Source of the DNA: Fidelibacterota bacterium
GTDB lineage: Bacteria; Fidelibacterota; Marinisomatia; SCGC-AAA003-L08; JACNLC01
Assembly: GCA_013204025.1 (NCBI GenBank)
Contig: JABMOW010000074.1
Coordinates: 1 to 30,085, forward strand
Length of the DNA: 30,085 nucleotides
Reading direction: 5' to 3'
The notes below the pieces were generated by a model. That model made no database searches. It saw nothing but the letters and a program-made list of their open reading frames with translations, and was not told the DNA's origin. The translations under genes and the position numbers were made by a program. This document shows positions 4,595-22,874 of the stretch, piece after piece. Every line of letters begins with the position of its first letter. Within the stretch, counting starts at the first letter, position 1.

Positions 4595-4596
4595 GA

Positions 4597-4800
4597 CTAA
4601 GTACTTATTGATCTTCCGGACTTTAGTTGCTCCATGGTTTCAACCGAACTTAACATTAATTTTACGCCCAAGTATACCAAATCAATATCTGCTACTGAAA
4701 TTACAATATCACCGGTGAGGATGACACCCTTGTTTAAAACTCTATCGAGTAATTCAAGGATGGTGATATCTTTTGACCGATCAATTACATTGTTGTTCAT
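4597..4800 (-). CDS. GvpA-family small hydrophobic protein (GvpM/GvpJ-like)
   Basis: The core ILELLDRVLNKGVILTGDIVISVADIDLVYLGVKLMLSSVETMEQ parallels the GvpA core [42 protein letters not shown]. Confidence 0.8.
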   Translation of the reverse strand: MNNNVIDRSKDITILELLDRVLNKGVILTGDIVISVADIDLVYLGVKLMLSSVETMEQLKSGRSIST

Positions 4801-5594: not shown

Positions 5595-5866
5595 TAATTA
5601 TCCGAACTATCCTTTCCTTCAAAGGAATTTAGTCTTTCGAAAGATGTAATTTCAAGTTTTTCATCTAATTCTACTTTGTAGAATAACCGCACTTGTTTTG
5701 GAGGTAAGTTCATTGATTTTAAGAAAGAATCATTTTCATATACTTCTGAAAAGGAGTTCCATATTTCATTTACTTTTTCAATTTTTATCACCGTTACATC
5801 AGAACAAATGATACTCTCTTTCAGAAACTTAACCACAGCTTTTTTTACATCGATGATATTACTCAT
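5594..5866 (-). CDS. Hypothetical small protein inside the gvp operon (possible uncharacterised gvp accessory protein)
   Basis: An open frame sits in an operon-conserved slot between gvpG and a gvpF/L paralog. The likely start is the internal Met (MSNIIDVKK..), because the longer ORF (to 5917) would overlap gvpG by 26 nt. No motif was recognised. Confidence 0.45.
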   Translation of the reverse strand: MSNIIDVKKAVVKFLKESIICSDVTVIKIEKVNEIWNSFSEVYENDSFLKSMNLPPKQVRLFYKVELDEKLEITSFERLNSFEGKDSSDN

Positions 5867-5891
5867 TTTTATCTCCAGTGAATAATTTGTT

Positions 5892-6119
5892 TCATTTCTC
5901 GGTACTGATATTTTCAAGCAATTGTAATAATTCGTCTTCTCTCTCGTCGTATTCTTCTACGTCAATTTCGTCCATCTCGAACTTCAATTGCAAAGCCATA
6001 AGTCGTTCTTTAATGGCGCCTTCATCAGACATTTCTTTCTCGATTACCTCATTGATTTTATTTCCAATAAAAATAATTCCTTTTAAAGGCGCTAGAAGTA
6101 TGTCATCGATTAAAAACAC
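5892..6119 (-). CDS. gvpG: Gas vesicle protein GvpG-like
   Basis: A 75-aa protein (MFLIDDILLAPLKGIIFIGNKINEVIEKEM...EEYDEREDELLQLLENI) resembling GvpG in size and composition. Its position between gvpF/L genes fits. Confidence 0.65.
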   Translation of the reverse strand: MFLIDDILLAPLKGIIFIGNKINEVIEKEMSDEGAIKERLMALQLKFEMDEIDVEEYDEREDELLQLLENISTEK

Positions 6120-6120
6120 A

Positions 6121-6915
6121 TCAAATTCCTTTCGTGTAAATTGTCAGATTAACAAAATTATATGGAGGCAATGTTCCTACGTATTTGAAGGTCATGAGAT
6201 GACCATATTTTTCATCCAAATTGTTCACCGCTTTGTCAAATGCAGGTTCTGATGTGTTTTTAATAAGGAAGGCGGCATTGAGGATCATCATTTCTCCATA
6301 GTTATCGTTCACCTTGACATCAACCGCATGCGGATTTAATTCAGAGAGAATATTGTTTCGATATGCCTCTCTCTCTTGTTCAAGCGCTTCGGCAACCATT
6401 TCACCAATTTTCATACGTTGATAATGGGTTTTATCTGCTGGCAGGTTCATCAGCTTTTCTTTTAATGACCTGATATCATCATATTTTTCAATGATGCTTT
6501 CATAAATTGCGGCTTCATGGGCAAGTATTTTGAGTCCTAATTCTTTTTTTCCATCCATCGTAATGAGAAGATCGTTGAATTTTTTATAATCCTTTTCGAG
6601 GATTCTCAGAATCCCGGCATCATCGTTGTGTTCTGATATAGTTGAAAAACGGATCGGTAGAACAGTAAACCGCTTCATCACCTCTTCAAGTACCAATTGA
6701 TGGGCGATCATATGAGCTCGTCTGGCCTTATATTGTATGATTGGTGAATTACTTACAACTGCACTGATATCTTTGTAATGGATTCCATAGACCTTATCAG
6801 ATCGATCTCCGATACCAATAGGGCCAAAGTCAATCGAATCTGCGTGCCTTATGATGCCATATATATACTTGCCTTCTTTGGGCGTTTCTTGCATGTTGCT
6901 CATAGTTAACATCAA
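6121..6915 (-). CDS. gvpF: GvpF/GvpL-family gas vesicle assembly protein (paralog 3)
   Basis: The N-terminus reads KYIYGIIRHADSIDFGPIGIG....ISAVVS. The C-terminus ends ..KYVGTLPPYNFVNLTIY. Confidence 0.85.
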   Translation of the reverse strand: MMLTMSNMQETPKEGKYIYGIIRHADSIDFGPIGIGDRSDKVYGIHYKDISAVVSNSPIIQYKARRAHMIAHQLVLEEVMKRFTVLPIRFSTISEHNDDAGILRILEKDYKKFNDLLITMDGKKELGLKILAHEAAIYESIIEKYDDIRSLKEKLMNLPADKTHYQRMKIGEMVAEALEQEREAYRNNILSELNPHAVDVKVNDNYGEMMILNAAFLIKNTSEPAFDKAVNNLDEKYGHLMTFKYVGTLPPYNFVNLTIYTKGI

Positions 6916-6925
6916 ATAAGTTTCA

Positions 6926-7699
6926 TTACAATTCCCACTTTTCGGGAAATATTTTCAGATCTATGAAATTATAAATCGGCAATGGAGCTGTATAAACAAA
7001 GTCGCTTCGGTCCTGGTATTTGATACCAAGATCTGCCATCATGTTATCAAGTTCAATCCCCCTTCCACTGTTCATAAGAATTGCCGTATTCATAAACATA
7101 GCATCTCCACTTGTTTTGTTATGTCTATAATCGAACACCGATCTTCTAAAGGCATCGATAATTTTTTCCGCTTCCACTACTTTCTTTTCAGCCAAAGCAT
7201 GTTCAATCAGTTCTCCGGTTTCAACTATTTTCAGCTTCCTTTTCTCCAGATCAGGCATTTTTTCGATTTTTACCTTGCTATTATGCAATTCAGCGTGTTC
7301 CTTGTCGATCTCCTTGTATATCATACTCATGTCTCTCCAGATTCCCTTTACATTGATTTCCACCTTATTTTCGAACTGCTTGAGCAATTCCATAAACTCG
7401 CTGTATCTGCGGTTAAGCAGGTTGCGAATTTCATCTGGAGTAGCGGCGATGGTACCAAACCTGATGGGGAGCATGCTTTCGAATTCCTTCATCACCGCTT
7501 CTAGAACCTTTTGGTGACTAATAATATTATCTGGGCTTACAACAAACTTGCCAAGCGGATGGTCACTCACCACCATACATAAACCATCGAAACCGATGGT
7601 AGAGACTAGGTCGCATCGCCCCCCAACTCCAATAGGGCCAAAATTGGTGTCATATTTTGTTGATATTATACAATATATATATTTACCATCCCGCTGCAT
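6926..7699 (-). CDS. gvpF: GvpF/GvpL-family gas vesicle assembly protein (paralog 2)
   Basis: The N-terminus reads KYIYCIISTKYDTNFGPIGVGG....LCMVVSD. The C-terminus ends ..VYTAPLPIYNFIDLKIF. Confidence 0.85.
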   Translation of the reverse strand: MQRDGKYIYCIISTKYDTNFGPIGVGGRCDLVSTIGFDGLCMVVSDHPLGKFVVSPDNIISHQKVLEAVMKEFESMLPIRFGTIAATPDEIRNLLNRRYSEFMELLKQFENKVEINVKGIWRDMSMIYKEIDKEHAELHNSKVKIEKMPDLEKRKLKIVETGELIEHALAEKKVVEAEKIIDAFRRSVFDYRHNKTSGDAMFMNTAILMNSGRGIELDNMMADLGIKYQDRSDFVYTAPLPIYNFIDLKIFPEKWEL

Positions 7700-7700
7700 A

Positions 7701-8741
7701 TTACTCCATTATTTTTACTAAAATCAAATTTTCAATTACTTTTTCCTTCGCAAGTGAAATATTATCATCATTTGAAGATTGTCTTATCGCTGCTGAATAA
7801 TTAATCAATGTACGATAGGCCATATTGATCTTGTTAAAGCTTTCTTTATCGCCATTTCTAGGATGCGCATCGGGATGAAATAATTTCGCTTTTTCCAGAT
7901 ACGCCTTTTTAATTTCTGATTCCGTTGTTTCATCCCCGAGTCTAAGCTCTATTATTGCCTGTAACACAATTTCCAGATTTAGCTCATTAACTTCAAGGGT
8001 GTAAAAACTATAACACGGTAGAGGTCCGACTAATTTGAAGTTCAACAAACCCTTGTATTCTTCATCAAGTTGGTCAACTATCTTTTCAAACAAACCCTGA
8101 TTGTTTATATTGATGAGAAACGCAGAGTTGGTTACCATTTCGTCATTCATTACTTGATGCGTTTTGATATCGAGACTGCATTGTGATAATGAATCCAGAA
8201 TATTGAATTCAGTTTTTGTGTTTTTTTCTTTTAATTTTGACTGAACCAACATCCCTATTTTCATCTGGTCAGCCTGCGAAAGTATATCTATTTTTTTCTG
8301 TATTTCATCTCTTAAAGATACGATTTCGGGATGTCCAGAAATTTCTTTAAGAATCTCCGGGAAATTGTCCCATGTGGCTGCCAAGTCAATTTCTGTCAGA
8401 TATTCAGTTTTCTTCAGAGTTGTGATAATTAATTCATAGCCATTGGCAAGTACTTTAATAACCTCTTGCTTTGATCCAACAACCGTATAAAACTTCATAG
8501 GGATAAGAGTGGAGGATCCTTTTAACTGGAGTGCTTCAATCGTTTTTTGATGATGAATCAATAAATACCCAAGCGACTTCTTGTTCAACTGATCAAGTTG
8601 GATATCCTCCGTGTCAGAGACTATAGCCAATATATTTTTAAAGCTGATGGTATAAAGCTCTGAATTTTCCAATAATCTTAACATATCCGTGTTGTGATTT
8701 TCCAACATAATACCGTAGATATAAATTTTATTTGTACTCAT
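7701..8741 (-). CDS. gvpF: GvpF/GvpL-family protein fused to a C-terminal DnaJ-type J-domain (HPD motif)
   Basis: The N-terminal ~255 aa are GvpF/L-like (KIYIYGIM..., ..KLVGPLPCYSFYTLEV). The C-terminal ~70 aa read ..SEIKKAYLEKAKLFHPDAHPRNGDKESFNKINMAYRTLINY, which has the helix II-HPD-helix III arrangement of a J-domain. Confidence 0.85.
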   Translation of the reverse strand: MSTNKIYIYGIMLENHNTDMLRLLENSELYTISFKNILAIVSDTEDIQLDQLNKKSLGYLLIHHQKTIEALQLKGSSTLIPMKFYTVVGSKQEVIKVLANGYELIITTLKKTEYLTEIDLAATWDNFPEILKEISGHPEIVSLRDEIQKKIDILSQADQMKIGMLVQSKLKEKNTKTEFNILDSLSQCSLDIKTHQVMNDEMVTNSAFLININNQGLFEKIVDQLDEEYKGLLNFKLVGPLPCYSFYTLEVNELNLEIVLQAIIELRLGDETTESEIKKAYLEKAKLFHPDAHPRNGDKESFNKINMAYRTLINYSAAIRQSSNDDNISLAKEKVIENLILVKIME

Positions 8742-8752
8742 GCGATGTGATC

Positions 8753-10906
8753 TTATTTCTTCTTTGCGTTTTGTGTTAATACCAGTTCGATCGCTTCTTC
8801 AAAATGTTTCGTCAGGATGATGATTTCTCCGGTAAGTTCAGATGACTTTCTACTTTCTTTTTCTATCAAAGCGCGAATTGCGAGCATGGCTGCTTTTTGG
8901 CAAATAAATTCGATATCTGATCCAGTTAAGCTATCTGTTTTCAGAGCTAGTTTTTTCAGATCTACTTTTTTATCAAGGGGTTTATTCTGGGTATGGATAC
9001 TGAATATTTTTTCCCTGGTAAATAAATCGGGCATAGGCAATTCAAAGATCAGATCGAACCTGCCACTTCTTAGTAAAGCCGGGTCAATTAAATCGATCCT
9101 ATTGGTTGCTGCCAGTACGATTACCCCTTTTAAGTCTTCAATGCCATCCATTTCAGTAAGGAACTGGCCGATCACACGTTCGATAACACCGGAACCGCCA
9201 TTATTGCGTCTGGGGGTAAGGCTGTCTATTTCGTCAAGGAACAAGATGCACGGTGATGCTTGTTTAGCCAATCTGAAGATCTCCCTTACTCCTTTTTCTG
9301 ATTCACCGATATAACGGCTCAAAATCTGTGGACCTTTTACGGAGATAAAATTAACTCCACTTTCACTTGCCAATGCTTTTGCAAGGTAGGTCTTACCTGT
9401 CCCGGGTTTTCCGTGAAGTATAATTCCTTTGGGTGGTTTGGTGGCGGTTTTTTTGAAAAGGTCGGCATATTTCAATGGCCATTCAACGGTTTCCATTAAA
9501 GCATTTTTGATGTCATCCAGACCACCAACATTTTCCCATTTAACATTGGGGATTTCCACAAATACTTCTCTGATGGCCGACGGTTCTACTTCTTTCATCG
9601 CATCAAGAAAATTATCCATGGTTACTTCAAGCGACATTAATAATTCGTATGGGATCTCTGCTATCTCGAAATTGATTTGAGGAAGTATTTTCCGCAAAGC
9701 AGTCATCGCAGCTTCGCGGGCTAAGGCTTCCAAATCCGCTCCCACAAAACCATGGGTGATTTCGGCCAGTTTTTCCATATCTACATCCATCGACAAGGGG
9801 ATACCCCGAGTATGGATATGAAGGATTTCCAGTCTGCCCTTTTTATCAGGAATGGAAATAGAAATTTCTCTATCGAACCGCCCAGGTCGTCTCAAAGCAG
9901 GATCTATGGAATTAGGAATATTGGTCGCGCCAATCACGATGACCTTACCCCTTGATTCCAGTCCGTCCATCAGCGACAACAGTTGAGCGACCACGCGTTT
10001 CTCCACCTGTTTCTCTCCGCCCATTTCTTCTCTCTTGGGCGCAATGGCATCAATTTCATCTATGAAAATAATGGAAGGCGCATGTGCCTGAGCCTCTTCA
10101 AAAATCTTACGGATTCTCCCTTCGCTCTCCCCATAAAATTTCCCCATGATCTCAGGGCCAGAAATGTTGATGAAATAGGCATCCGTTTCATGAGCCACAG
10201 CTCTAACGATGAGCGTTTTTCCGGTTCCCGGAGGACCATAAAGGAAAACTCCTTTGGGTGGCTGAACACCAAGTCGTTCGAAAATCTCAGGATATTTTAG
10301 CGGAAGTTCAATCATTTCTCTGATGCGTTGAACTTGGTTTCCAAGCCCCCCAATGTCCTCGTAGGAAACCTTACTTTTGCGTTTCCCGTCTTGCTTTGCC
10401 AATTCAAGCTGAATAATAGTATTTGGGTGTATTAATACAACGCCCTCGGGATTGATACCGGTTACAGTGTAATCAACTGAACGAGACCCAAACAGGACTG
10501 CTTTAATTCTATCGCCTTTTGTTACCGGAAGACCATTGATCAGCGAGCCAATGTACTTTGTGTCATCGGCTTTGTATAAAGAACCGGTTTTTGTATCAGA
10601 TTTGAGTTTTATTTTTGTCGCCTGGCGGCAAGTTGTTTTAATAATTTTTACTTTTTCATCGATCCCTGCCTGTGCATTTTCCCTGGTGATCCCGTCAATC
10701 TGAATGATACTCATATCTCTGTCATCAGGATAACATGGCATTATTCTTACAGGGGTAGCTCGTTTGCCTTCAATCACAACTACGTCGCCACTTTCCAAGC
10801 CGATCAATTTCATATCTTTTGGATCGATCCTGGCGATGGCTCTTCCAACATCCTTTACCAGGGCTTCTTTAACACGTAATATTATTTCATCTTTGATTTT
10901 TACCAT
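8753..10906 (-). CDS. cdc48: Cdc48/VCP/VAT-like double-ring AAA+ ATPase (N-domain plus D1 plus D2)
   Basis: The N-domain is Cdc48-like ([41 protein letters not shown]). There are two Walker A motifs ([16 protein letters not shown]) and two Walker B motifs ([20 protein letters not shown]). The protein is 717 aa. Confidence 0.9.
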
Positions 10907-10909
10907 GGT

Positions 10910-11830
10910 TTACGGTTTCTTTGGTTGATCTCCAAAAAGATACATACTCAATTTTTTCAATGCTTTCAGCCCTTTGATTTCTTCAGGAAACATGGGTACT
11001 TCAATCATATTCAAATTACTAAATATTTCACTAATCTGGCTCAAATATGGTAATTGGCTCGCCCTTCGCCTTTTACAAAAATCACAATCCTCAGAAACCA
11101 CTACATTGTTTACGATGATCTGTCTCGAAATGATTCCGGATTTACCAAGATCCGCTAATAGTCTGTCCGTTTCTATAATTGCCATCGCTTCGGGGATACA
11201 AACAGGGATAAATTCGCATTTGGAGTTATTTTTCAAGATGTTTTCGATCCTTTTAACCGTTTTTTTAAGGTTGAGTAAAAAGGTGTCTACCTTATCCTGC
11301 TTATATGAACCTGAAAAGCTGGTGACCATATAACGGTATTTCCATCTCATCTTGGCGGCAACTTTTATCCATGCATCCAATAATTTTGGAGATGAAATCA
11401 GTCGCAATGCGTGACCAGTGGGTGCGGTATCCACAACATATTTATCATACTCGCCTTCTTCAATAAAATCAATGATGGTTTTAAAACTCATCACCTCATC
11501 AATGCCGGGTATCGATAAGGTCAGCATCTCGTCGATGTCCTCATTGTCAAGATTTGTAGAAGTTTCCAGAAGTTTTTTAAGCTCGTTATGGTGTGCTGTT
11601 TTGAATACCGAAAGTGCCTCGTCAGCAACCACTTCTATAGCCGACAGGTTGTCTACACCATCAACCTTTACCACATTAAAACCAATTTGTTGTTCGAGAC
11701 AATCCGACACAGAATGAGCCGGATCGGTGGAGATGAGAAGCGTTCTGTGATTTTCAGACAACGCCAGCGCTGTGGTTAAAGCACAACTGGTTTTTCCAAC
11801 GCCACCCTTTCCTCCGAAAATGATGAGCTT
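10910..11830 (-). CDS. Get3/ArsA-family P-loop ATPase with a CxxC motif; the N-terminus and start codon are unresolved
   Basis: The ORF carries the ArsA/Get3 signature VVDTAPTGHALRL and a CDFC (CxxC) motif. The tracked ATG (11761) lies downstream of the P-loop. The frame stays open upstream to the TAG at 11882-11884 and encodes KLIIFGGKGGVGKTSCALTTALALSENHRT, but contains no ATG, GTG or TTG. The 5' end given here is therefore approximate. Confidence 0.8.
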   Translation of the reverse strand, partial: KLIIFGGKGGVGKTSCALTTALALSENHRTLLISTDPAHSVSDCLEQQIGFNVVKVDGVDNLSAIEVVADEALSVFKTAHHNELKKLLETSTNLDNEDIDEMLTLSIPGIDEVMSFKTIIDFIEEGEYDKYVVDTAPTGHALRLISSPKLLDAWIKVAAKMRWKYRYMVTSFSGSYKQDKVDTFLLNLKKTVKRIENILKNNSKCEFIPVCIPEAMAIIETDRLLADLGKSGIISRQIIVNNVVVSEDCDFCKRRRASQLPYLSQISEIFSNLNMIEVPMFPEEIKGLKALKKLSMYLFGDQPKKP

Positions 11831-11868
11831 TAGATCGTCGTTTCCTAATCCGGTAAGGGTCGTGTTTT

Positions 11869-12396
11869 TTATTTTGCTATCCTAATTTCAAGGATTCCAT
11901 TATTAAATTTGTGATTTAGGTTTTTACTTACGACTTTTACCGGAAGAAGCAGCTCTTTGCGGTATGTCCTATTATTGCTGACCGCCGAAATTTCAAGTAT
12001 ATCTTCTTTTAGGTCGATTTTAAGGTCAACTTCCTCTATTCCCGGCATTTCAGCAATGATGACGATCTCATTCTTTTCATCAAATATGTCGGTTATCGGC
12101 TCCCGTTCTTCATCCACTCTTGGTCCTTCGGGTGTTTTTTTTATGTTTCCGAAAGTCTCAACTTGTGGTTCACCTCCAACTGCCGTGTTGACGGTAAAGC
12201 CATAAATGCCTTTCATGCCTTTTTTGATATGATCAAAATTAATCTCACCTTCCTTGCTAATTCCCCCCTTTTCCTCGAGCTTCCCAGCAAGGTCAACTAA
12301 TTTTTCGATGCCTTTGAACAGACCGCCAAGTCCGAAAAGATCAGAATTGGCTTCGCCCTTTTTTTCTTTATTTTTTTCGTTTTCCATTTTAAACAT
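11869..12396 (-). CDS. gvpH: Hsp20/alpha-crystallin-domain protein (GvpH-like)
   Basis: The C-terminal alpha-crystallin domain reads ..ITDIFDEKNEIVIIAEMPGIEEVDLKIDLKEDILEISAV...YRKELLLPVKV....FNNGILEIRIAK. The N-terminus is Gly/Lys-rich. Confidence 0.75.
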   Translation of the reverse strand: MFKMENEKNKEKKGEANSDLFGLGGLFKGIEKLVDLAGKLEEKGGISKEGEINFDHIKKGMKGIYGFTVNTAVGGEPQVETFGNIKKTPEGPRVDEEREPITDIFDEKNEIVIIAEMPGIEEVDLKIDLKEDILEISAVSNNRTYRKELLLPVKVVSKNLNHKFNNGILEIRIAK

Positions 12397-12748: not shown

Positions 12749-13063
12749 TTAATAATCTATCGACATAGTTTTAAAATCAGATTTCACTTCTTCCTGGTTC
12801 TTTTTATTTGACTTCTTAGTTTCAGGAATGCATATCTGTTTTGCTTTTTCGTTAGTAAATACTTGGATTTCCTTTAACCGGTTTTGAATAATCTCAAGTC
12901 TTTGTAAAATCCTGATCTCTTCACTTTGCAAACGGCTTCTTTCTTTTTCGAAGAGATACAGATTTATGAACTCTGAATCTTCCTTATTTGGAATACCGGA
13001 TTTGGCAGCATTTTTCATTGATTTAATGCTTTGAAGTCCTTTTATTGCACTTGAAATTGGCAT
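12749..13063 (-). CDS. Hypothetical coiled-coil protein inside the gvp operon
   Basis: A 104-aa ORF is tightly packed between gvpN and gvpJ. It is charged and helical (..EKERSRLQSEEIRILQRLEIIQNRLKEIQ..). No motif was recognised. Confidence 0.5.
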   Translation of the reverse strand: MPISSAIKGLQSIKSMKNAAKSGIPNKEDSEFINLYLFEKERSRLQSEEIRILQRLEIIQNRLKEIQVFTNEKAKQICIPETKKSNKKNQEEVKSDFKTMSIDY

Positions 13064-13075
13064 AATATTTCCGAT

Positions 13076-14020
13076 TTATTGAGGGTTTGATTTATTAGGT
13101 TTTAGAGTATTTTGATTTATTAATTCATCAACGATTAATTTCACCCTTTCCTGATTGGTTTTTGAGCCAATCCGGCTGGTTTCGGAAGTGAGAATATCCT
13201 GACAAATTTTTCGGAATAGATCTTTTGATTTTGATGGTGTTGTATTTAAAGTTGCCAGTGTTTTTGCAATCATGATGGAACCACGAATAGTCGGATCAAA
13301 TTCAGTTTTCCCTGACTCGCGTAAACCCCTGACAATTTTAACAATTATTTCAGTATCCTTTAGCGAAAGGTCGGATTTTGCCTTGGTAATCTGCAATTCG
13401 GTTTCAAAATCGAAATGATCGAGATCCATGGTAACCATCCTGTCGCGAAGAGCGTCCTGGGTTCGGTTAACCCCGGCATATTCTTCAGGATTTGACGTAA
13501 AGATTGCGCGAAATTCGGGATGCACCTTCATGTAATAATCCTCTTCGTTTGTAGCTGATGTACTCAGCATTCTCTCTTGAAGTATTGGTAGAAGGATATT
13601 ATTTGCTTCCGGGCGCGATCGGGTAAATTCGTCATAAATAAGGGTAAACCCGTTTTTAACAGCGATAGTCAAACGGTTATTCACCCACTGCTTTGACATA
13701 TTCTCTTCATACTTATGAACAGTATGAATAAACTTATCATCCAATTTTTTATATTTATACCCCTGTTCGCTACCAACTAAATCAGAAGTTTTATATTCGG
13801 CATCACCATGTATAATGACCGACGGTCTGCCTATTTTACTTGCCAGATGCATGGCGACTGTTGTTTTTCCGGTTCCCGATGGACCCCTGAAATGAACTGG
13901 GAATCCCGCTTTTATATAGGTTAGGCCACGGGCGGTAATGTCTTTTATATAATCAGTTTCTACAAAATTCGACATCGGTTTCAGCTCAAGTACGGTATTC
14001 ATTTCATTGTTATTGCTCAT
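13076..14020 (-). CDS. gvpN: Gas vesicle AAA+ ATPase GvpN
   Basis: The Walker A reads FRGPSGTGKTTVAMHLA. The size (314 aa) and single-AAA layout are typical of GvpN, and the genomic context fits. Confidence 0.9.
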   Translation of the reverse strand: MSNNNEMNTVLELKPMSNFVETDYIKDITARGLTYIKAGFPVHFRGPSGTGKTTVAMHLASKIGRPSVIIHGDAEYKTSDLVGSEQGYKYKKLDDKFIHTVHKYEENMSKQWVNNRLTIAVKNGFTLIYDEFTRSRPEANNILLPILQERMLSTSATNEEDYYMKVHPEFRAIFTSNPEEYAGVNRTQDALRDRMVTMDLDHFDFETELQITKAKSDLSLKDTEIIVKIVRGLRESGKTEFDPTIRGSIMIAKTLATLNTTPSKSKDLFRKICQDILTSETSRIGSKTNQERVKLIVDELINQNTLKPNKSNPQ

Positions 14021-14071: not shown

Positions 14072-14260
14072 TTACATAAATTCTTGGTTGGACAATTGTT
14101 CAACTGTGCTTTTCCAGATGTCCCTTGCCTCTTCAATTTCTTTTGTTATCTGTTCCTTTGCAAGTAAATAAGCTTTTTTCTTGGCTTTAAACCGGATTAA
14201 TGCTTCTTGTCTTTTCAGTAAATTTTTCCTGATATTATTTACGGCATTATTCAATGTCAA
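14072..14260 (-). CDS. Hypothetical small helical protein (62 aa), translationally coupled to the zinc-finger gene
   Basis: There is a 4-nt ATGA overlap with the upstream ORF. The protein is basic and helical. No motif was recognised. Confidence 0.45.
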   Translation of the reverse strand: MTLNNAVNNIRKNLLKRQEALIRFKAKKKAYLLAKEQITKEIEEARDIWKSTVEQLSNQEFM

Positions 14261-14668: not shown

Positions 14669-16024
14669 TTATTTTAGCGGAAAGTAAATATTTTCAACTT
14701 TTTGGACTTTCCCTGCATTCAACAAGATTTTAGCTATAAATCCAAGTTTCATTCTGGTTTCTCCAAGGGGTTTTTCCATTTCCGAAATTTTCACACCTTT
14801 GGGATGTTTGTTGATATAATCAAGTATCTTATTTTCCAAAGTTTTCGGACTTGTTGGTTCTGGAGTGTTAACCAGGGGTTTAGGTTTAGCTGGAGTTTCA
14901 TTTGTTGCCATGAGAACTACGGGGTTTGGTTTGGTTTCAACAGGGATTTCCTTTGTTGGCATTGCTGCCACAGGCGGTTTTGGTTTAGCCGGAGTTTCCT
15001 CTGTTGCCATGAGAACTACGGGGTTTGGTTTGGTTTCAACAGGAGTTTCCTGAGTTTCCATTGCAGCCACAGGCACTTTTGGTTTGGTTTCTGCCGGAGT
15101 TTCCTTTTTTGCCTGATCCTTTACTACTTGCTTAGGCGATATAATAATGCCCATTTTTCTTATTTGAGATATAGAGTCTTGCATATTTTTCCATGTTGCA
15201 GTAGCCTCTCCTCTGTCTTTTGATAGATAACCAAGCATTCCATTAGTATATTTCTGAATTCCATTTACTTCATTACGAATTCCTTTAATAGCCCCATGTA
15301 TCCCGGTCATGATTGACCTGTATCCGCTAAGTCTTTCTGCTTCTCCAGTATCAAGGTCTTTTCTCAACTTTTGAGCCATTTGTTGGTTTTCTGTACTTAT
15401 TTCAGACAATTTTTTTTGAAACCCATTCAACAGGGTTTTGGTATATTCAACTCTTTCAGTCAGATTTTTACTTAATTCTGCTCTAAGCTCATCCGTCATT
15501 TCCATATGCTCATTCTCAAATCTTTTGAGCATATCGTTGGTGTTTTTGAAAATACTCAAAACCTCGTCGTTGATACTTTTAATATCATCGTTGATATTTT
15601 TCATGAGCGTACCAAATTCCTTCATCCGATTTTTTTCATTCCCCAATCTGTCAGCTTTTCCTTGTGCAAAAGATTTATTTAATTCGTCTGCCATTTGTTC
15701 TCTATTGGCAGCGAATTCATTGATCATATTTAAGGTGCAAGTTTGAATTGTCTTTACATCTTTCTGAATGGATGTGATCGTGCTATGGATATTCGTCATT
15801 AATTCATTGTAGGTGTTCAGGCGTTCTTTTTCATCACCTGCTAGGCCTTTTTTTAAGGCCATAGCATTGGCATTTATAACACTGGTCATTTTCTGGTGAT
15901 CTTTTCGAAAACCATCGAGGGTTTTCTGTACATCGCTTACAAGATCTTCATTTTCCTTGATTCGCTGTTTAAATGAAGCAAGTATGTCTTCACTCAAATT
16001 TTTCATTTCTGATGCTAATCCCAT
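14669..16024 (-). CDS. Repeat-rich helical protein, candidate GvpC-like gas-vesicle shell/scaffold protein, with a C-terminal winged-helix-like domain
   Basis: It contains ~60-aa degenerate helical repeats built around (D/G)x(K/A)(E/D)RL(N/S)xY(N/R)x(L/I)MT(N/G)IH(S/G)xI(T/K)xI(Q/R)x(D/E)V(K/N)xIQ, written with slashes for alternatives. Two and a half tandem 33-aa Pro/Lys-rich repeats follow (ETKPNPVVLMATEETPAKPKPPVAAM..). The C-terminal ~60 aa (..KILDYINKHPKGVKISEMEKPLGETRMKLGFIAKILLNAGKV) look like a winged helix. Confidence 0.7.
   Translation of the reverse strand: MGLASEMKNLSEDILASFKQRIKENEDLVSDVQKTLDGFRKDHQKMTSVINANAMALKKGLAGDEKERLNTYNELMTNIHSTITSIQKDVKTIQTCTLNMINEFAANREQMADELNKSFAQGKADRLGNEKNRMKEFGTLMKNINDDIKSINDEVLSIFKNTNDMLKRFENEHMEMTDELRAELSKNLTERVEYTKTLLNGFQKKLSEISTENQQMAQKLRKDLDTGEAERLSGYRSIMTGIHGAIKGIRNEVNGIQKYTNGMLGYLSKDRGEATATWKNMQDSISQIRKMGIIISPKQVVKDQAKKETPAETKPKVPVAAMETQETPVETKPNPVVLMATEETPAKPKPPVAAMPTKEIPVETKPNPVVLMATNETPAKPKPLVNTPEPTSPKTLENKILDYINKHPKGVKISEMEKPLGETRMKLGFIAKILLNAGKVQKVENIYFPLK
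14874..15094. repeat. 99-bp tandem repeat (x2.3) inside the CDS, encoding 33-aa Pro/Lys-rich units
   Basis: Units at 14874-14972 and 14973-15071 are nearly identical. A partial third unit follows. Confidence 0.8.
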
Positions 16025-16064
16025 TTTTTACTCCTATTTGTAAATAAATGTTTGTTTACTTTTG

Positions 16065-16667
16065 TTAGTTGATTTCTTTAATGATTTGATCTTTAATCGT
16101 TTTAATATCCTGAACCATAATGTCTTCGCCCCTTTTAAGTAAGCTTTCAAAGCATTCCGTCATTCGGTAGTGCATTTTCTGAAATTCTATAAAAGTCTTC
16201 ATGACTGATTCTTTGCTCATTTCCTGTTGTATTGAGATCTGAGAAAGTTGCTCTTTGATGATAGTAACTTTTCCGTTGGCGTCCGGTGACGTATTTATAT
16301 CCAACATGTTTTTCTTTAACGACTGGGCAGCTTCTTTCTGAACTTCGATAAAGCTTAAAAACTGTTCCTCAGCCTCTTTTTCCTTTGCGTCGAGTACGTC
16401 AAGAATCCCCGACATTATAATATTGTAATCTTTTTTACGCAGAGAACCATTTTTTGCCATGGTTTCACAAAGCTTGGAATTTAATATGTCTCTTTCCTTT
16501 TTTAGATCATTTAAGGAATTATGGACATTATCGAAAAGGAGGTGGGACGATTCCGCAATATACTCTGATGATTGGAAAGCAGTTTGAATTTTTTCTACCC
16601 TGGCCTCATATGAAGTTATAATGTTGTTAATAACGCTATTTATATTCAATTTAGGGAAAGTATCCAT
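16065..16667 (-). CDS. Helical protein paralogous to the repeat unit of the 451-aa protein (second GvpC-like candidate), directly downstream of gvpA
   Basis: ..SLRKKDYNIIMSGILDVLDAKEKE.. parallels ..ERLSGYRSIMTGIHGAIKGIRNEV.. The protein is 200 aa and mostly helical. Confidence 0.65.
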   Translation of the reverse strand: MDTFPKLNINSVINNIITSYEARVEKIQTAFQSSEYIAESSHLLFDNVHNSLNDLKKERDILNSKLCETMAKNGSLRKKDYNIIMSGILDVLDAKEKEAEEQFLSFIEVQKEAAQSLKKNMLDINTSPDANGKVTIIKEQLSQISIQQEMSKESVMKTFIEFQKMHYRMTECFESLLKRGEDIMVQDIKTIKDQIIKEIN

Positions 16668-17099: not shown

Positions 17100-17117
17100 T
17101 GGCAATGATAATGCCGT
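17100..17117 (-). promoter_or_regulatory. Putative sigma-54 (-24/-12) promoter for gvpA
   Basis: The minus strand reads cGGCAttatcaTTGCc, i.e. GG-N10-GC with GGCA and TTGC elements. It lies about 75 nt upstream of the gvpA ATG. A sigma-54 enhancer-binding-protein gene is the next gene upstream. Confidence 0.45.
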
Positions 17118-17283: not shown

Positions 17284-18681
17284 TTACTTTTCGCTTTTAC
17301 AAATGGTGATGTCGTACTTTTTCATTTTTCGGATGAGGGCATCGCGAGTTATTCCAAGTTCATCAGCTGTTGCTTTTTGATTATATTTGCAGTTCTTTAA
17401 TACTTTTCGAATTGTTTTAATCTCTTGAATTCTCAGATTGGTTGAATCAACACGATCCTCTGATGAGGAGATATTATGCGGTTTTACCGGAAAGTCATTT
17501 ACCCGGAGTACGTTGCTTTTGCAAAGGATAATGGCTCTCTCAGTCATATTTTTCAATTCCCTGACATTTCCAGGAAAATCATATTTTACTAGTGCAGTAA
17601 TAGCTTCATTATCAAGCCGCATGCTAGGTTTATTAAATTGTGTTGCATAGAAATCAACAAAATGGATCAACAGGGGTTTGATGTCTTCAGGCCTATCCCT
17701 AAGTGCCGGGATATGTATATGTAGGGTATTGAGTCGGTGAAGCAAATCAAGCCTGAATTCTTTTTTCTCTACACTTTTTTGAATATCATGGTTTGTGGCA
17801 GAAATGATTCGGAAATCAGTCTTAATCGGTTTTGTTTCTCCCACCCTAGTGATCACTTTTTCTTCGGTGGCACGAAGAATTTTCGCCTGCAGATTAAAAG
17901 GCATGTCGGCAATTTCATCAAGGAACAAGGTTCCCTGATTACACACTTCAAAAAAGCCCATCTTATCGGAAATGGCACCGGTAAATGATCCTTTTTTATG
18001 GCCAAAAAATTCGCTTTCCAGAAGTGATTCAGTAATGGCACTGCTGTTAACGGCACAAAATATATTGTCTTTTTTTAAGCTTGAAAAATGTATAATTCTG
18101 GCAATATTCTCTTTTCCGGTCCCACTTTCTCCTGTGATCAGCACATTTGCATCTGGGTAATTTGCGGCAGTGATAGCTTGTTCGAATACCTCAAGAATCT
18201 GTGGGCTGACACCAATAAATTGCCGGTCGATTTTTTCTTCGAGGGTTTTTGAAATTAATGAGTTTTTTTCTTCCATCTGCTTCAATCTTCTTTGCATCTG
18301 AAGAAATTTTTGAGTACGCTTAATTGCAATCTGAATGTCGATATGCCTGAAAGGTTTACGCAAATAATCGAATGCTCCAAGCCTCATGGCTTTGATCACT
18401 GTATCCATATCGCCGTGAGCCGAAACGATGATAACCTCCATGGCAGGGAATTGAATTTTTACATCTTTTAAAATATCCAGGCCATTTATACCCGGCAACC
18501 GCACATCAAGGATGAGAAGGTCAATGTTATGACTTTTTAATAATTTTTGCGCCTCCTGCTCAGTATTTGCCTCAAATGCCACAAAGCCCGAATTCTGAAA
18601 TAATTCATGCAATTCTTCAGTAAATTGTTTTTCATCGTCCAGGATCAGGATCTCAAGTTTGTGTTGATTTTCCATACTCAT
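17284..18681 (-). CDS. Sigma-54-dependent response regulator (NtrC family: REC, AAA+ sigma-54 activator, Fis-type HTH)
   Basis: The REC domain has the Asp in LILDVRLPGINGLD. The Walker A reads GESGTGKE. A GSFTGA variant of the GAFTGA loop is present. The C-terminal HTH reads ..ATADELGITRDALIRKMKKY. It overlaps the kinase gene by 4 nt. Confidence 0.9.
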   Translation of the reverse strand: MSMENQHKLEILILDDEKQFTEELHELFQNSGFVAFEANTEQEAQKLLKSHNIDLLILDVRLPGINGLDILKDVKIQFPAMEVIIVSAHGDMDTVIKAMRLGAFDYLRKPFRHIDIQIAIKRTQKFLQMQRRLKQMEEKNSLISKTLEEKIDRQFIGVSPQILEVFEQAITAANYPDANVLITGESGTGKENIARIIHFSSLKKDNIFCAVNSSAITESLLESEFFGHKKGSFTGAISDKMGFFEVCNQGTLFLDEIADMPFNLQAKILRATEEKVITRVGETKPIKTDFRIISATNHDIQKSVEKKEFRLDLLHRLNTLHIHIPALRDRPEDIKPLLIHFVDFYATQFNKPSMRLDNEAITALVKYDFPGNVRELKNMTERAIILCKSNVLRVNDFPVKPHNISSSEDRVDSTNLRIQEIKTIRKVLKNCKYNQKATADELGITRDALIRKMKKYDITICKSEK

Positions 18682-21600
18682 TCTTTATTTTGTAAATTTA
18701 TAATTATATGAAAAGTTGAGCCATCAAATATATTGCTCGATACTTCTATTGTGCCATTCATCTCTTGTATTATCCGATATGAAATTGACAATCCAAGTCC
18801 AGTACCTTTCCCGGTATCCTTGGTTGTATAAAAAGGAAGCATAATATGTTCACTATCCTCTTCGCTGATGCCGGTACCATTATCGCTAATTTCAATAATA
18901 AGATCTTGGTCCTCCAGAAATGATCTAATCCCGACGAACATATCAAATTCCTCTGATAATTTGCCTTTCTTTTCAAGCAGCGCATCTTTGGCATTTGATA
19001 ACAGATTAAGGATAACCTGTTCAAATTTTATATTATTACCAATAATTAAAGGAATACTTTCTTCCAATTGTAGATTTAGACTGATGGCCAAATGTTTAAA
19101 TTGTTCCGATATCATCATGATAGTATTTTGGATACTTACATTAATATCAAAGGCTGTTAGAAGGTAATCATCGCGGCTTCTTGAAAATGCCTTGACGTGA
19201 TCTATGATGTTTCTTATCCGTGTAATATTTTCAAAAATTTTATTCGATTTTTTCTTTAGGTATTCTTTTTCGATTATTTCCTCTTTGGTAGCCTCGTATA
19301 AGACATTATCCATAACCATTGATATGATATTTAATGGCTGGTTAATTTCATGTGCAATGCCAGAGGCCATTTCTCCCAGACTGGCCATACGATCAGAGTG
19401 AATCTGCTTTATTTCCATTTTCTTGCGTTGGGAAATATCGCGGATAATAACCATGAATGCAATTGACTTTCCATCCGGGTCCTGAATTAAAGTAGAGTTG
19501 ATTTCACCTATAAGTGTCGATCGGTCTTGTTTTCTGAATTGTATTTCAATATTTTGTTCAAGCCCTTCATCCATTGTCTTTTCAATAAGCTTTTTTAACT
19601 TATTTCTTCCAGCAGATGGAACAAATTTGGAAAAATGTTTGCCCAGTAAGTCACTTCTGAAGTCGGCGCCAATTAATTCAAGCCCGATATCAGAAACCTC
19701 GATAATGATTCCTTTCATGTTGAATATTAAAATACCATCGGGAGAAGCATTTAGCATCGTTTTGTATTTCTCTTCGCTTACTTTTAGTGCGTGTTCTGCT
19801 ATTTTGCGTTCTGTGATGTCGCGTATAAATGCATAGTATCGTCCGCCCTCGGTCAGCACGAAATTAACACTGATCTCAATATTTATAGTTCTGCCGTCTT
19901 TACAACGATGTTGGGTCTCAAAGCGATCATAACCAAAATCTCTCACCAACTGTATGTGTGGTTCGATCTCTTCCGAGTTTTCCTGAATATCAACATCTTT
20001 GAAGCTCATTTTTAACAATTCTTCCCGGCTGTAGCCGATTAAATTGCAATAGGCATTGTTCACATCCAGAAAGCGTCCTTGAGAGTCCGACATAATGAAA
20101 CCATCCATCGCCGCTTTAATAATCGATCCATGCTCTTCCTCGGAATGCATGCGCTTGGTGATGTCTTCGAAAGTAGAGTATACTTGATATGCTTTCTTTT
20201 TTCCCGGGTTGAACAGAGGGATAGAATTAATATTTATCCAACGAGTTTCTTCAATTTTAGGATTAAATACTCCCATAATTGCATTGCTTACCGGTTTCCC
20301 TGTTTTTAAAGCCACCATGGCAGGGTGTGTATCTCCGGGAAAATCCGTGCCGTCCTCGTGGATGGATTTCCATCGTGGATCAGTAGAGGTGCGTCCTTGC
20401 ATCTGATCTAACGAAAGTCCCAGGATGTGCTCTGCCGAGGGATTTGCTGAAATTATCTTTCCCTTTTTATCTTGATGCACTACACCCTGGATCATGGTTT
20501 CAAACAAATTGCGAAATTTTATTTCGCTGTCCCTTCTTTCATTCTCAAATTGAATTCGTTGAGTGATATCTGATGAAATGCCTAACAAATATTCCGATTT
20601 CCCATATTTATCAAGGATAGGGATTTTTTGTGTCTGTAAAATTCTTATGCCTTTATTCTTGGTATGAATCGATTCTTCAGGCATATACGTCAGACCAGAT
20701 CCCTTTAATGTTTTCTTATCCTTTGAAGTAAAGAAATCAGCTTCTTTCTTAGTAAAAAAGTCATAATCATTTTTACCAAATAGTTCATCTCTCGAATAAC
20801 CAAGCAGTTCTTCGCCAGCTTTATTAAGGCGTACAAAGGTCAAATCTTTGGCATCTTTAAGGAAGATCATATCAGGAATATTTTCTATAATGGAGTCTAG
20901 AAGTAGATTAGTTCTTTTTAACTCATCCTCCATCTGCTTGCGCTGTGTGATGTCGTGAACAATACCATCAAAATATAAAATGGTCCCGGTATCGTCGTAT
21001 ACCACTTTCGCACTTTCGCTTACAAAAAGTTTCGTTCCGTCTTGCTTTATCCAGGCAGATTCAAATTCAAGTATTTGTCCATCTCTTTCAATTTTTCCCA
21101 TAAAAACTGAATGCTGATAATTGGGATCAAATCCTTCCTCTTCCAAATTACGATGTGCAAGTTCTTCAAACGAGGAAAAGCCCAGCATTTTTACCAAGGT
21201 TGGATTCGCCATCAGGATTCTACCATCTTGAGTAGTTCGATATAATCCGATTAAAGTATTTTCATAAACACTACGGAATCGTTTGTCACTGTCTTTTTGT
21301 TCCTTCTCCACTTGCTTGCGTTGGGTTATGTCAAGGTTAATGCCCACCCATTTCATTATTTTACCAGTATCATCCTTAATCGGTCTTCCGATAGCTAGAA
21401 CATTTCGATAGCTGCCGTCTTTTGCTCTGAATTGGTGTTCCTTCTCATAGTCTGCCCCAGTTTCGACACAACTGATCCAGTGATCTTTTGTCGGTTCAAC
21501 ATCCTCAGGTGGTAATAAACTCAGCCAGCCAAATTTTTGTATTTGTTCCATTGTCATACCGGTCATTTCAAGGAACGAAGAACTGCAATACGTACAATAG

Positions 21601-22874
21601 CCGGTGGCATCTGTAGTCCAGGCCCCATAGTCGATTGTCTCACCGAGAGTTCGATACTGCAATTCGCTCTGGATAAGTTCCTTCTCCGCTTGCTTGCGTT
21701 CGGTGATATTTTCCTGTATCACCACAACGTTTGTCACCTTGCCTTCAGGAGAAAATATTGGGAAAAATTTTATTTTAACAAAAATTTTATTATTGTTATA
21801 TGGTGAAATGTATTCTTGCTCGAGTACATCTATCTCATTCCCATTTAATGCTTCCCTAATATGTTTATCAACACCGTATTCAATATTTTGTGGTACAGTA
21901 AGCGCGTTTGTTCCAAGAATTAAATCTTTATCGGGAACAGCATAAAATTTCAGAAACGCTTCATTAACAACCAATAGAATGCCATTGTCATCCAACACAA
22001 AAGTGGAAAGCGGTGACTGCTGTATGAGACGTTCAAGGAACTCGCTTTTTCTTTTTACTTCCTCCTCCGCCTGCTTGCGATCGGTGATGTCTTTTGTAAA
22101 GCCAAGAAATCGTGTTTCCGAAAGTTTAATGGCTTCTACAGTCCACCATCGAGTGGTCCCGTTTTTATATTTGAACCGCATATCTGCTGTTGCTGCGCCG
22201 GTTTCACGTATTTTTTTGAATTGAACCGAGTCATCTTTTGACGATTCTTCCGTACTCATATCCGAGATTGACATTTTTAAAAGTTCATTTTTCGAATACC
22301 CGGTTATTCTGCATGCTGCTTCGTTCACTTCGATATATTTCCCGAGTTCATTTACAACAAAAACGCCATCAGGAGCATTATCAACGTAACTCCGATATTT
22401 TTCTTCACTCCTTACAAGGGCTTTGTTAATTCTGGTCAATTCGTCGGCAGATTTTTTCAGTGCCAACGCGTCCTTGACAATGATCTGTTTCTGTTCGAAT
22501 AGATTAAGAAATACTTCGATTTTACTTAGTAGAATATGATAGTTGACTGGTTTGAAGATATAATCGACTGCCCCGGAATTATACCCTTCAATCACACCAA
22601 TATCGTTGGGACCGGCTGCCGTAAGAAAAATGATTGGTACTTTATTATCGGATCTTTTTTCATTCATCTTTATCGCCAGTTCATAACCACTCATACTGGG
22701 CATCCGAACGTCGATGATTGCCAATGAAAGTTCAATTCCCTTAATTTTCTTCAGGGCTTCATACCCAGAACGCGCCGATATCAGATTAGCTTTTGTTTTC
22801 TTAAGGACTACTTCAAGAAAGGTCAGATTGGCTTCGGTGTCATCTACAATAAGTATGTTTGGTAGATAATCCAT
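18678..22874 (-). CDS. Hybrid sensor histidine kinase: N-terminal REC, multiple PAS/PAC domains, HisKA and HATPase_c (1398 aa)
   Basis: The N-terminal REC reads ILIVDDTEAN..AIIDVRMP. There are at least six PAS-like modules, each ending in ..DIT(Q/E)RK(Q/K)AE... The H-box reads GIAHEINQPLN, the N-box LNLLSNAKDAL, and the G-boxes ISDNGTGIS and GTGLGLSIS. Confidence 0.9.
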   Translation of the reverse strand: MDYLPNILIVDDTEANLTFLEVVLKKTKANLISARSGYEALKKIKGIELSLAIIDVRMPSMSGYELAIKMNEKRSDNKVPIIFLTAAGPNDIGVIEGYNSGAVDYIFKPVNYHILLSKIEVFLNLFEQKQIIVKDALALKKSADELTRINKALVRSEEKYRSYVDNAPDGVFVVNELGKYIEVNEAACRITGYSKNELLKMSISDMSTEESSKDDSVQFKKIRETGAATADMRFKYKNGTTRWWTVEAIKLSETRFLGFTKDITDRKQAEEEVKRKSEFLERLIQQSPLSTFVLDDNGILLVVNEAFLKFYAVPDKDLILGTNALTVPQNIEYGVDKHIREALNGNEIDVLEQEYISPYNNNKIFVKIKFFPIFSPEGKVTNVVVIQENITERKQAEKELIQSELQYRTLGETIDYGAWTTDATGYCTYCSSSFLEMTGMTMEQIQKFGWLSLLPPEDVEPTKDHWISCVETGADYEKEHQFRAKDGSYRNVLAIGRPIKDDTGKIMKWVGINLDITQRKQVEKEQKDSDKRFRSVYENTLIGLYRTTQDGRILMANPTLVKMLGFSSFEELAHRNLEEEGFDPNYQHSVFMGKIERDGQILEFESAWIKQDGTKLFVSESAKVVYDDTGTILYFDGIVHDITQRKQMEDELKRTNLLLDSIIENIPDMIFLKDAKDLTFVRLNKAGEELLGYSRDELFGKNDYDFFTKKEADFFTSKDKKTLKGSGLTYMPEESIHTKNKGIRILQTQKIPILDKYGKSEYLLGISSDITQRIQFENERRDSEIKFRNLFETMIQGVVHQDKKGKIISANPSAEHILGLSLDQMQGRTSTDPRWKSIHEDGTDFPGDTHPAMVALKTGKPVSNAIMGVFNPKIEETRWININSIPLFNPGKKKAYQVYSTFEDITKRMHSEEEHGSIIKAAMDGFIMSDSQGRFLDVNNAYCNLIGYSREELLKMSFKDVDIQENSEEIEPHIQLVRDFGYDRFETQHRCKDGRTINIEISVNFVLTEGGRYYAFIRDITERKIAEHALKVSEEKYKTMLNASPDGILIFNMKGIIIEVSDIGLELIGADFRSDLLGKHFSKFVPSAGRNKLKKLIEKTMDEGLEQNIEIQFRKQDRSTLIGEINSTLIQDPDGKSIAFMVIIRDISQRKKMEIKQIHSDRMASLGEMASGIAHEINQPLNIISMVMDNVLYEATKEEIIEKEYLKKKSNKIFENITRIRNIIDHVKAFSRSRDDYLLTAFDINVSIQNTIMMISEQFKHLAISLNLQLEESIPLIIGNNIKFEQVILNLLSNAKDALLEKKGKLSEEFDMFVGIRSFLEDQDLIIEISDNGTGISEEDSEHIMLPFYTTKDTGKGTGLGLSISYRIIQEMNGTIEVSSNIFDGSTFHIIINLQNKE

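Follow-up and report, generated by a model that had tools for sequence, protein, structure and literature searches.

A probable GvpC-family protein with an appended winged helix follows gvpA in a gas-vesicle cluster from an uncultured bacterium

GvpC sets the strength and the width of gas vesicles and is the component through which acoustic reporter genes and display on the vesicle surface are mainly engineered. In cyanobacteria, the number of helical repeats in GvpC was reported to correlate with vesicle width and strength (PMC9372576). The repeat residues Leu4, Phe11, Leu12, Arg19, Leu30 and Phe33 were described by Huber et al. as the conserved binding face of GvpC and were found by mutagenesis to be required for stabilisation, and in the published docking model Glu52 and Glu59 of the shell protein GvpA are bonded to Arg19 and Gln26 of GvpC (PMC9994262). 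The GvpC of haloarchaea contains N-terminal helical repeats of variable length (32-40 amino acids, aa) and a C-terminal domain through which the protein associates with itself and binds other Gvp proteins, among them GvpN and GvpO (PMC10903477, PMC9372576). Here, positions 1 to 30,085 of contig JABMOW010000074.1 (hereafter the window) were analysed, and a complete gas-vesicle (gvp) cluster was found on the minus strand by profile scans of the window's open reading frames (ORFs). Directly after gvpA, the cluster was found to contain ORF200, which encodes an all-helical protein, followed by ORF451, which encodes helical repeats, a disordered spacer and a C-terminal winged helix; both ORFs were confirmed at the coordinates given in Table 1. 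By sequence comparison, ORF451 probably belongs, in strongly diverged form, to the GvpC family, as a remote homolog rather than an analog.

No ORF of the window was matched by the GvpC models of Pfam and NCBIfam, and no other GvpC candidate was found in the window. Remote homology is favoured because the ORF451 family is connected to cyanobacterial GvpC through members that contain canonical 33-aa repeats, and the homology is transitive because ORF451 and its closest homologs miss the GvpC models directly. In the first link, the alignment of the ORF451 family (A1) was found by hhalign to match the alignment of its 33-mer subgroup (A5) with an E-value of 2.5e-49 over the full length, 2.3e-30 with the helices only and 8.7e-21 with the helices only minus the first 60 residues. 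In the second link, A5 was found to match an alignment (A6) of a genuine GvpC set of seven proteins, all positive for PF01304, with a probability of 86.6-88% (E 3-4.5e-6) over 106-107 collinear columns from the N-terminus, whereas the reversed-sequence controls gave E 0.3-0.37.

A custom hidden Markov model (HMM) built from the 33-residue repeats of the seven GvpC proteins gave 43.2 bits with the family member P0317, followed by 26.6, 24.1, 23.0 and 22.9 bits with P0329, P0314, P0324 and P0302, respectively, against a maximum of 11.2 bits among 3040 composition-matched shuffles and of 4.4 bits among reversed family sequences. The shuffle maximum was exceeded by 19 of the 152 family representatives, with alignments that ran through two consecutive repeats in register and without gaps. 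The NCBIfam GvpC-repeat model TIGR02641 was the top match of P0317 (19.6 bits, trusted cutoff 18.8) and the third match of P0314 (15.6 bits), and P0317 and P0302 were found in the same gene order as ORF451. The 33-mer consensus of the subgroup, V.DLskdV.kmLKGF.kdRKkMS.EQAKnLadF, contained Leu4, Leu12, Arg19, Gln26, Ala27, Leu30 and Phe33 in common with the GvpC consensus. The preliminary description had placed GvpC-type helical-repeat proteins in the gvpC position, which is upheld by the conserved synteny next to gvpA, the amphipathic repeat helix and the sequence link to GvpC. It had also called ORF451 an analog rather than a homolog of GvpC, and the two-step chain and the score of P0317 above the TIGR02641 cutoff speak against this.

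Several findings weigh against the assignment. Neither ORF451 nor its 120 closest homologs were matched by PF01304 or TIGR02641 at E<=1, the custom GvpC-repeat HMM gave -0.9 bits with ORF451 and at most 4.9 bits over ORF451 and these homologs, and direct hhalign of the ORF451 family with GvpC gave a probability of 27% only. Homology would be carried by a two-step transitive chain of which the second step is moderate; that step draws on a GvpC set of just seven sequences, closely related to one another, and summed scores are inflated by repeats. In ORF451, each 33-mer was recognisable over its first ~20-28 positions only, the equivalents of Gln26 and Leu30 were lost in its first repeat core, and the repeat periods of the family (33, 40, 51, 56, 58, 65 and 69 aa) were not simple multiples of the GvpA spacing. 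All of the sequences come from uncultured organisms. Lastly, we know of no precedent for a winged helix in GvpC, and the domain could indicate a different primary role.

The amphipathic repeat domain of ORF451 was modelled with AlphaFold2 (AF2) from 60 homologs as three long helices. Internal helical repeats were recovered by profile self-comparison in hhalign, with off-diagonal matches of E 6.6e-21 to 4e-17, and a unit of ~65 aa that is lengthened, at its third occurrence, by an additional insertion of 33 aa. When the units were stacked, two alternating half-units were found, the first reading L..F..(D/N)(H/R)..M...L and the second reading GE.ERL..Y..LM..IH..I..I..EV. Fourier analysis gave one sharp peak each for column conservation and for mean hydrophobicity, in both cases at 3.60 residues over 285 aa, with a power of 16.8 and 176, respectively, against 4.5 and 64 at the 95th percentile of shuffles. 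This periodicity indicates a straight alpha helix with one conserved hydrophobic face from end to end, as would be expected of a helix lying on a regular surface.

Five repeat cores were located in this domain with a profile (fam33 HMM) of the 33-mers from the A5 subgroup, whose summed score was 67 bits for ORF451 and 4 bits for its reversed sequence. The cores were spaced by 65, 65, 40 and 58 aa, with each 33-mer only partly retained, and appear to be interleaved with a second type of segment. The location of core 4 coincided with the 33-residue gap in the self-comparison, and the weak core 5 was aligned to the earlier units by the same method. The position equivalent to Arg19 was occupied by H43, R108, H173 and R271. 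A repeat length commensurate with the GvpA lattice was considered and dropped, as the family periods showed no clear multiple; the 65 aa of ORF451 correspond to ~8 GvpA subunits and ~18 helical turns.

The GvpA of the window was found to align without gaps over 68 aa with that of Anabaena flos-aquae (PDB 8GBS), and its alpha2 segment (11 residues) was identical to that of Anabaena, Glu52 and Glu59 included. At 1.5 Å per residue, the 291-residue helix of ORF451 would span ~436 Å, or 34-36 subunits at the published GvpA spacing of 12.1-12.7 Å. In the arrangement that we infer for vesicle binding, stiffening and the winged helix, the ~291-residue amphipathic helix, bearing five GvpC-type cores with family-specific segments between them, would lie outside the vesicle wall along the GvpA ribs and would contact the exposed alpha2 helices, tying ~34-36 subunits together. 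The spacer would keep the C-terminal winged helix off the wall, the winged helix would mediate interactions, much as the C-terminal domain does in haloarchaeal GvpC, and ORF200, the putative obligate helical partner, would bind ORF451 or the shell.

Compared with cyanobacterial GvpC (PF01304; TIGR02641, gvpC_cyan_rpt), ORF451 is alike in the position of its gene just downstream of gvpA, in its all-alpha amphipathic repeats, in the basic 33-aa repeat of its family, which keeps Leu4, Leu12, Arg19, Gln26, Leu30 and Phe33, in the collinear alignment of the N-terminal non-repeat segment and in the identical alpha2 docking helix of the partner GvpA. It differs in that it falls below the thresholds of all GvpC models, that its cores are separated by family-specific segments of ~32 aa to give a super-repeat of ~65 aa, that at 451 aa it is over twice as long as the GvpC of Anabaena (193 aa), and that it contains an additional 100-aa disordered spacer and winged helix and is always paired with ORF200.

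The spacer was found to be rich in V, K, E, P, A and T, and its composition may be likened to an entropic linker of the PEVK type. Among 98 close homologs the spacer was found to vary from 31 to 100 aa (median 47.5) with a near-zero net charge, that of ORF451 being the longest. Independent tandem repeats were found in the spacers of other homologs, for example VKETPVEV in six copies in P0006, from which the spacer appears to evolve through duplication. The 99-bp tandem repeat of the preliminary description was found within the spacer of ORF451, with a nested sub-period of ~51 bp (Tandem Repeats Finder). It had been described as exact, with two and a half copies, and as a perfect and recent duplication, whereas the repeat contained 2.2 copies with 87% matches, the best 99-nt window of an offset scan was identical at 88 of 99 positions, and the copies differ at ~11% of positions, so that the duplication is imperfect and of some age. 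A repeat produced by misassembly is made less likely by this divergence. When the 451-aa protein was looked up by exact sequence in search of independent assemblies, no record was returned. The suggestion that the 33-mers of the spacer tune vesicle width or strength is also unlikely to hold, since they belong to the hypervariable spacer and not to the helical repeats, and an effect of the spacer on shell stiffness is accordingly improbable. The 33-aa period of this Pro-rich linker appears to be unrelated to GvpC, and the GvpC-like 33-aa periodicity to sit in the helical domain.

The last ~60 aa of ORF451 had been said to resemble a winged helix and were modelled as one with high confidence, with helices at residues 396-405, 413-420 and 424-436 followed by strands at 440-443 and 446-449 (H-H-H-beta-beta). 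A Foldseek search of the PDB returned the winged helices of Zalpha, IclR, MarR and SelB together with the dimerisation domains of O-methyltransferases (target template-modelling (TM) score 0.8-0.9, root-mean-square deviation 0.8-1.5 Å, probability 1.0), with E-values of just 0.025-0.2 owing to the shortness of the domain. The C-terminal domains of the family gave weak Pfam matches to MarR_2, HTH_IclR, RPA_C and EutK_C, and a sequence search of the PDB with the profile of this domain returned nothing, even at E 10. The net charge was +6 in ORF451 (isoelectric point, pI, 9.8), with a mean of +1.6 among close homologs and +0.6 among distant ones (mean pI 7.5-8.4). A Zalpha-like function was considered, as Zalpha tops the fold matches, and was set aside in favour of a generic winged helix, as the residues that contact Z-DNA, the Asn and Tyr of helix 3, are presumably not kept.

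The default reading of the winged helix as a protein-interaction module is adopted because haloarchaeal GvpC shares the layout and its C-terminal domain binds Gvp proteins. The GvpC of Halobacterium salinarum is alike in overall architecture, with helical repeats that lead through an extended linker into a compact C-terminal domain (PMC10903477, PMC9372576), and differs in that this domain contains a zinc-finger motif and not a winged helix. With a lower probability, the winged helix may instead bind DNA or act as a tether.

In the relatives P0326, P0333 and P0389, the winged helix was found to be replaced by long basic repeats rich in Lys, Ala and Pro, such as PAPKPAAKK and APAVKKAEPVKV, which in our view recall the DNA-binding tails of the histone-H1-like or PhaF-like type.

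The best surviving alternative, itself unlikely, is that ORF451 is an organelle tether or titratable regulator like PhaF, PhaM and PhaR, in which the helices bind the vesicle and the winged helix or the AKP-rich tail binds DNA, so that vesicles are anchored to the nucleoid for positioning and partitioning or gvp transcription is coupled to the free vesicle surface. Such a role would agree with a confidently predicted winged helix whose closest structures are nucleic-acid-binding (Zalpha, IclR, MarR, SelB) and which is basic in ORF451, with the basic tails of the three relatives, and with weak recurrent matches of the helical domain to surface-coating amphipathic families (apolipoproteins, ApoLp-III, phasin PhaP_Bmeg). 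It agrees less well with a winged helix that is only mildly basic or neutral across the family, with the use of the same fold for protein-protein contact and dimerisation (the O-methyltransferase matches), with the presumed loss of the Z-DNA contacts and with a spacer that is charge-neutral and not histone-like in this lineage. The likeness to phasin-type coat and tether proteins (PhaF, PhaP, PhaR) would lie in amphipathic surface-binding helices followed by a module of the nucleic-acid-binding type, in the AKP-rich tails of some relatives and in the weak matches just named. It differs in that no significant sequence relationship was found, all matches being below the curated cutoffs, and in that the gas vesicle is a protein shell and not a polyester granule.

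There is also a small chance that the ORF451 family is a GvpC that doubles as a tether, its repeat helix coating the vesicle while the springy spacer and the winged helix or AKP-rich tail attach to the nucleoid, to other vesicles or to the assembly ATPases. If this were true, vesicle positioning and partitioning, or a feedback on gvp expression that senses the vesicle surface, would be built into the gas vesicle, in a manner comparable to PhaF, PhaM and PhaR of polyhydroxyalkanoate (PHA) granules.

It is quite improbable that ORF451 and ORF200 are transient assembly factors, which as a scaffold or holdase would coat or chaperone GvpA during nucleation and growth and would be absent from mature vesicles. 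The cluster is rich in genes that would suit such a role (Hsp20, an ArsA/Get3-like ATPase, a CDC48-like AAA protein, a GvpF-DnaJ fusion and a DnaJ-type zinc-finger protein), and haloarchaeal GvpC contacts assembly factors through its C-terminal domain (PMC9372576), whereas the long one-faced repeat helix and the sequence link to GvpC better fit a stoichiometric lattice binder, and the gene adjoins gvpA in the promoter-proximal slot expected for an abundant structural product. A dedicated transcription factor of the gvp operon, with a coiled coil for oligomerisation only and a DNA-binding winged helix, is very improbable even given that winged helix and the own regulators GvpD and GvpE of haloarchaeal clusters (PMC10903477), as ~290 residues of variable-copy repeats and a hypervariable spacer of 31-100 aa are atypical of a regulator, some members do not contain the winged helix, the family matches the GvpC repeat, and a PAS histidine kinase and a sigma-54 response regulator are already present in the cluster.

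ORF200, the proposed partner of the GvpC-like ORF451, was modelled by AF2 as three long helices with a predicted local distance difference test (pLDDT) score of 79 and a predicted TM score of 0.59, and Foldseek with this model returned only generic long-helix bundles (BAR domains and designed bundles, E >= 0.055) and no specific match. Pfam and NCBIfam scans of ORF200 and ORF451 gave only sub-threshold matches to unrelated helical families (Baculo_PEP_C, ApoLp-III, DUF948, PhaP_Bmeg). ORF200 had been taken for a paralog of the helical repeat unit; a similarity was found and was weak, with BLASTP against ORF451 at E 0.04 or worse and hhalign of residues 39-98 with ORF451 residues 193-252 at a probability of 50-54% (E 1.3-1.6e-4, 60-66 columns), so that ORF200 is possibly a distant paralog of ORF451. 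Residues 10-89 were found to match the N-terminus of the A5 subgroup (E 1.6e-4) with the motif I..SY..R in common; no match was found to the 33-mer HMM, comparison with GvpC gave E 0.61, and the custom GvpC-repeat HMM reached at most 2.0 bits in the ORF200 family.

In P0359, an N-terminal half like ORF200 (hhalign probability 97.8%, E 1e-12) was found to be fused to a C-terminal half like ORF451, and distant versions of ORF200 were found to precede the ORF451 homolog at the loci L083 (E 5.6e-22) and L087 (E 3.4e-9). The fusion and the distant homologs point to ORF200 and ORF451 as an old functional pair. Homologs of ORF200 were always found between gvpA and the ORF451 homolog, and ORF200 is here treated as a putative obligate partner of ORF451.

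Homologs were found in 472 clusters for ORF451 and 584 clusters for ORF200, with identities of 55-72%. A synteny scan with one genome per species gave 80 loci, every one from a metagenome-assembled genome (MAG) and, with few exceptions, labelled Bacteroidales, Prolixibacteraceae or other Bacteroidota. Wherever the flanking sequence sufficed, the order gvpA-ORF200-ORF451-zinc finger-gvpN was found. This synteny also extends to the distant members P0296, P0348, P0359, P0317 and P0302. The distant members that were looked up directly follow gvpA, one of them with sulfate-reducer-like neighbours, except for P0352, whose short contig ends before gvpA. A profile search of 1.84 billion representatives gave 883 members of the ORF451 family at E<=1e-3 and 413 at E<=1e-10, counted at the 50% level. 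Their lengths were ~200-520 aa, with variable repeat number and period, and the C-terminal winged helix was shared by most of them. Among the 83 representatives with clear repeats, a helical period of 33 aa was the most frequent (19), the other periods being 51, 58, 56, 40, 65 and 69 aa. At locus L088, a 110-aa protein is encoded directly after P0302 (5476-5808, plus strand), in the slot of the zinc-finger gene, and looks like a miniature member of the family, with an N-terminal M.DLSE.I and a C-terminal R..W..M and neither linker nor winged helix.

The family thus appears to be a large unannotated branch of GvpC with at least 883 clusters at 50% identity, widespread in Bacteroidales of anoxic lakes and in clusters with a sulfate-reducer-like gene context. 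With its variable repeat spacing and spacer length and its added winged helix, the branch would extend the known range of the GvpC family, would identify the counterpart of GvpC in these clusters and would supply natural variants for tuning vesicle mechanics or cargo attachment. It also exposes an annotation gap, as all homolog clusters of ORF451 and ORF200 were named hypothetical protein or carried spurious automatic names; no description of the ORF451/ORF200 family was found by literature search.

Table 1. Features of the gvp cluster in the window, in order of transcription (residue numbers refer to the encoded proteins).
Feature	Position	Strand	Remarks
PAS histidine kinase	18678-22874	-	upstream of the sigma-54 response regulator in transcription order
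sigma-54-dependent (enhancer-binding) response regulator	17284-18681	-	upstream neighbour of gvpA
sigma-54-type -24/-12 element GGCATTATCATTGC	17102-17115	-	~75 nt upstream of the gvpA ATG
gvpA, major gas-vesicle shell protein, 68 aa	16821-17027	-	PF00741 59 bits; NF006874 133.5 bits
ORF200, all-helical partner protein, 200 aa	16065-16667	-	directly after gvpA
ORF451, putative divergent GvpC-family protein, 451 aa	14669-16024	-	after ORF200; helical repeats, spacer and winged helix
ORF451 aa 1-291, amphipathic alpha-helical repeat domain	15152-16024	-	AF2 helices 2-123, 129-172, 178-291
GvpC-type repeat core 1, aa 27-46, DLVSDVQKTLDGFRKDHQKM	15887-15946	-	fam33 HMM 27.0 bits
GvpC-type repeat core 2, aa 99-119	15668-15730	-	fam33 HMM 16.7 bits
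GvpC-type repeat core 3, aa 158-185	15470-15553	-	fam33 HMM 17.8 bits
GvpC-type repeat core 4, aa 196-225	15350-15439	-	fam33 HMM 11.4 bits; the 33-aa insertion in unit 3
degenerate repeat core 5, aa 253-271	15212-15268	-	fam33 HMM -0.4 bits, weak
ORF451 aa 292-392, disordered V/K/E/P/A/T-rich spacer	14849-15151	-	AF2 pLDDT 33-41, no secondary structure
imperfect 99-bp tandem repeat within the spacer	14873-15085	-	Tandem Repeats Finder: period 99, 2.2 copies, 87% matches
ORF451 aa 393-451, winged-helix domain	14669-14848	-	AF2 pLDDT ~94
hairpin immediately 3' of the ORF451 stop codon	14621-14654	-	12-bp stem, -22.4 kcal/mol, z = -4.5
DnaJ-type CXXCXGXG zinc-finger protein, 105 aa	14257-14574	-	directly after ORF451
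62-aa ORF without family assignment	14072-14260	-	between the zinc-finger gene and gvpN
gvpN	13076-14020	-	after the zinc-finger gene
104-aa ORF without family assignment	12749-13063	-	after gvpN
chaperone-like genes	7701-12396	-	in addition to the zinc-finger gene
five consecutive GvpF/L-family paralogs	3845-8741	-	one fused to a J-domain

The position of both proteins directly downstream of gvpA was confirmed by the two profile matches of GvpA (Table 1). The zinc-finger gene, with its DnaJ-type CXXCXGXG motifs, was always found next after the ORF451 homolog. Small genes of 30-61 aa were also called in relatives in the slot of the 62-aa ORF, and the 104-aa ORF, which is conserved in related loci, was found in the position that is the gvpO slot of other clusters. 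Further downstream, the cluster was found to contain a gvpJ-like gene, Hsp20, an ArsA/Get3-like ATPase and a CDC48-like double-AAA ATPase, followed by the GvpF-DnaJ fusion, four more GvpF/L paralogs and gvpK. Chaperone-like genes were unusually many. Model gvp clusters are usually described with two GvpF/L proteins, and the five found here exceed that number.

The element GGCATTATCATTGC was the sole match to GGCA-N6-TTGC within the window and was found directly downstream of the genes for the sigma-54 enhancer-binding response regulator and the large PAS histidine kinase (17284-22874), which together suggest that gas-vesicle formation is under sigma-54 control. Conservation of the element in related loci was partial: the strict motif was found ~91-99 nt upstream of gvpA in 5 of 50 loci, with a sixth match at 166 nt, and the looser GG-N9-TGC was found upstream of gvpA in 17 of 50 loci, against 3 of 50 shuffled controls.

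The source MAG was labelled 'Candidatus Marinimicrobia bacterium' by NCBI (HQ510_05590), and the close relatives of both proteins and the common synteny were all found in MAGs of Bacteroidota, Bacteroidales or Prolixibacteraceae; mis-binning or mislabelling of the contig is possible. Just past the stop codon of ORF451, a stable hairpin was found that none of 200 shuffles equalled in folding and in which a clear U-tract was not present. This hairpin may be a terminator, a processing site or an mRNA-stabilising element that separates gvpA-ORF200-ORF451 from the later genes.

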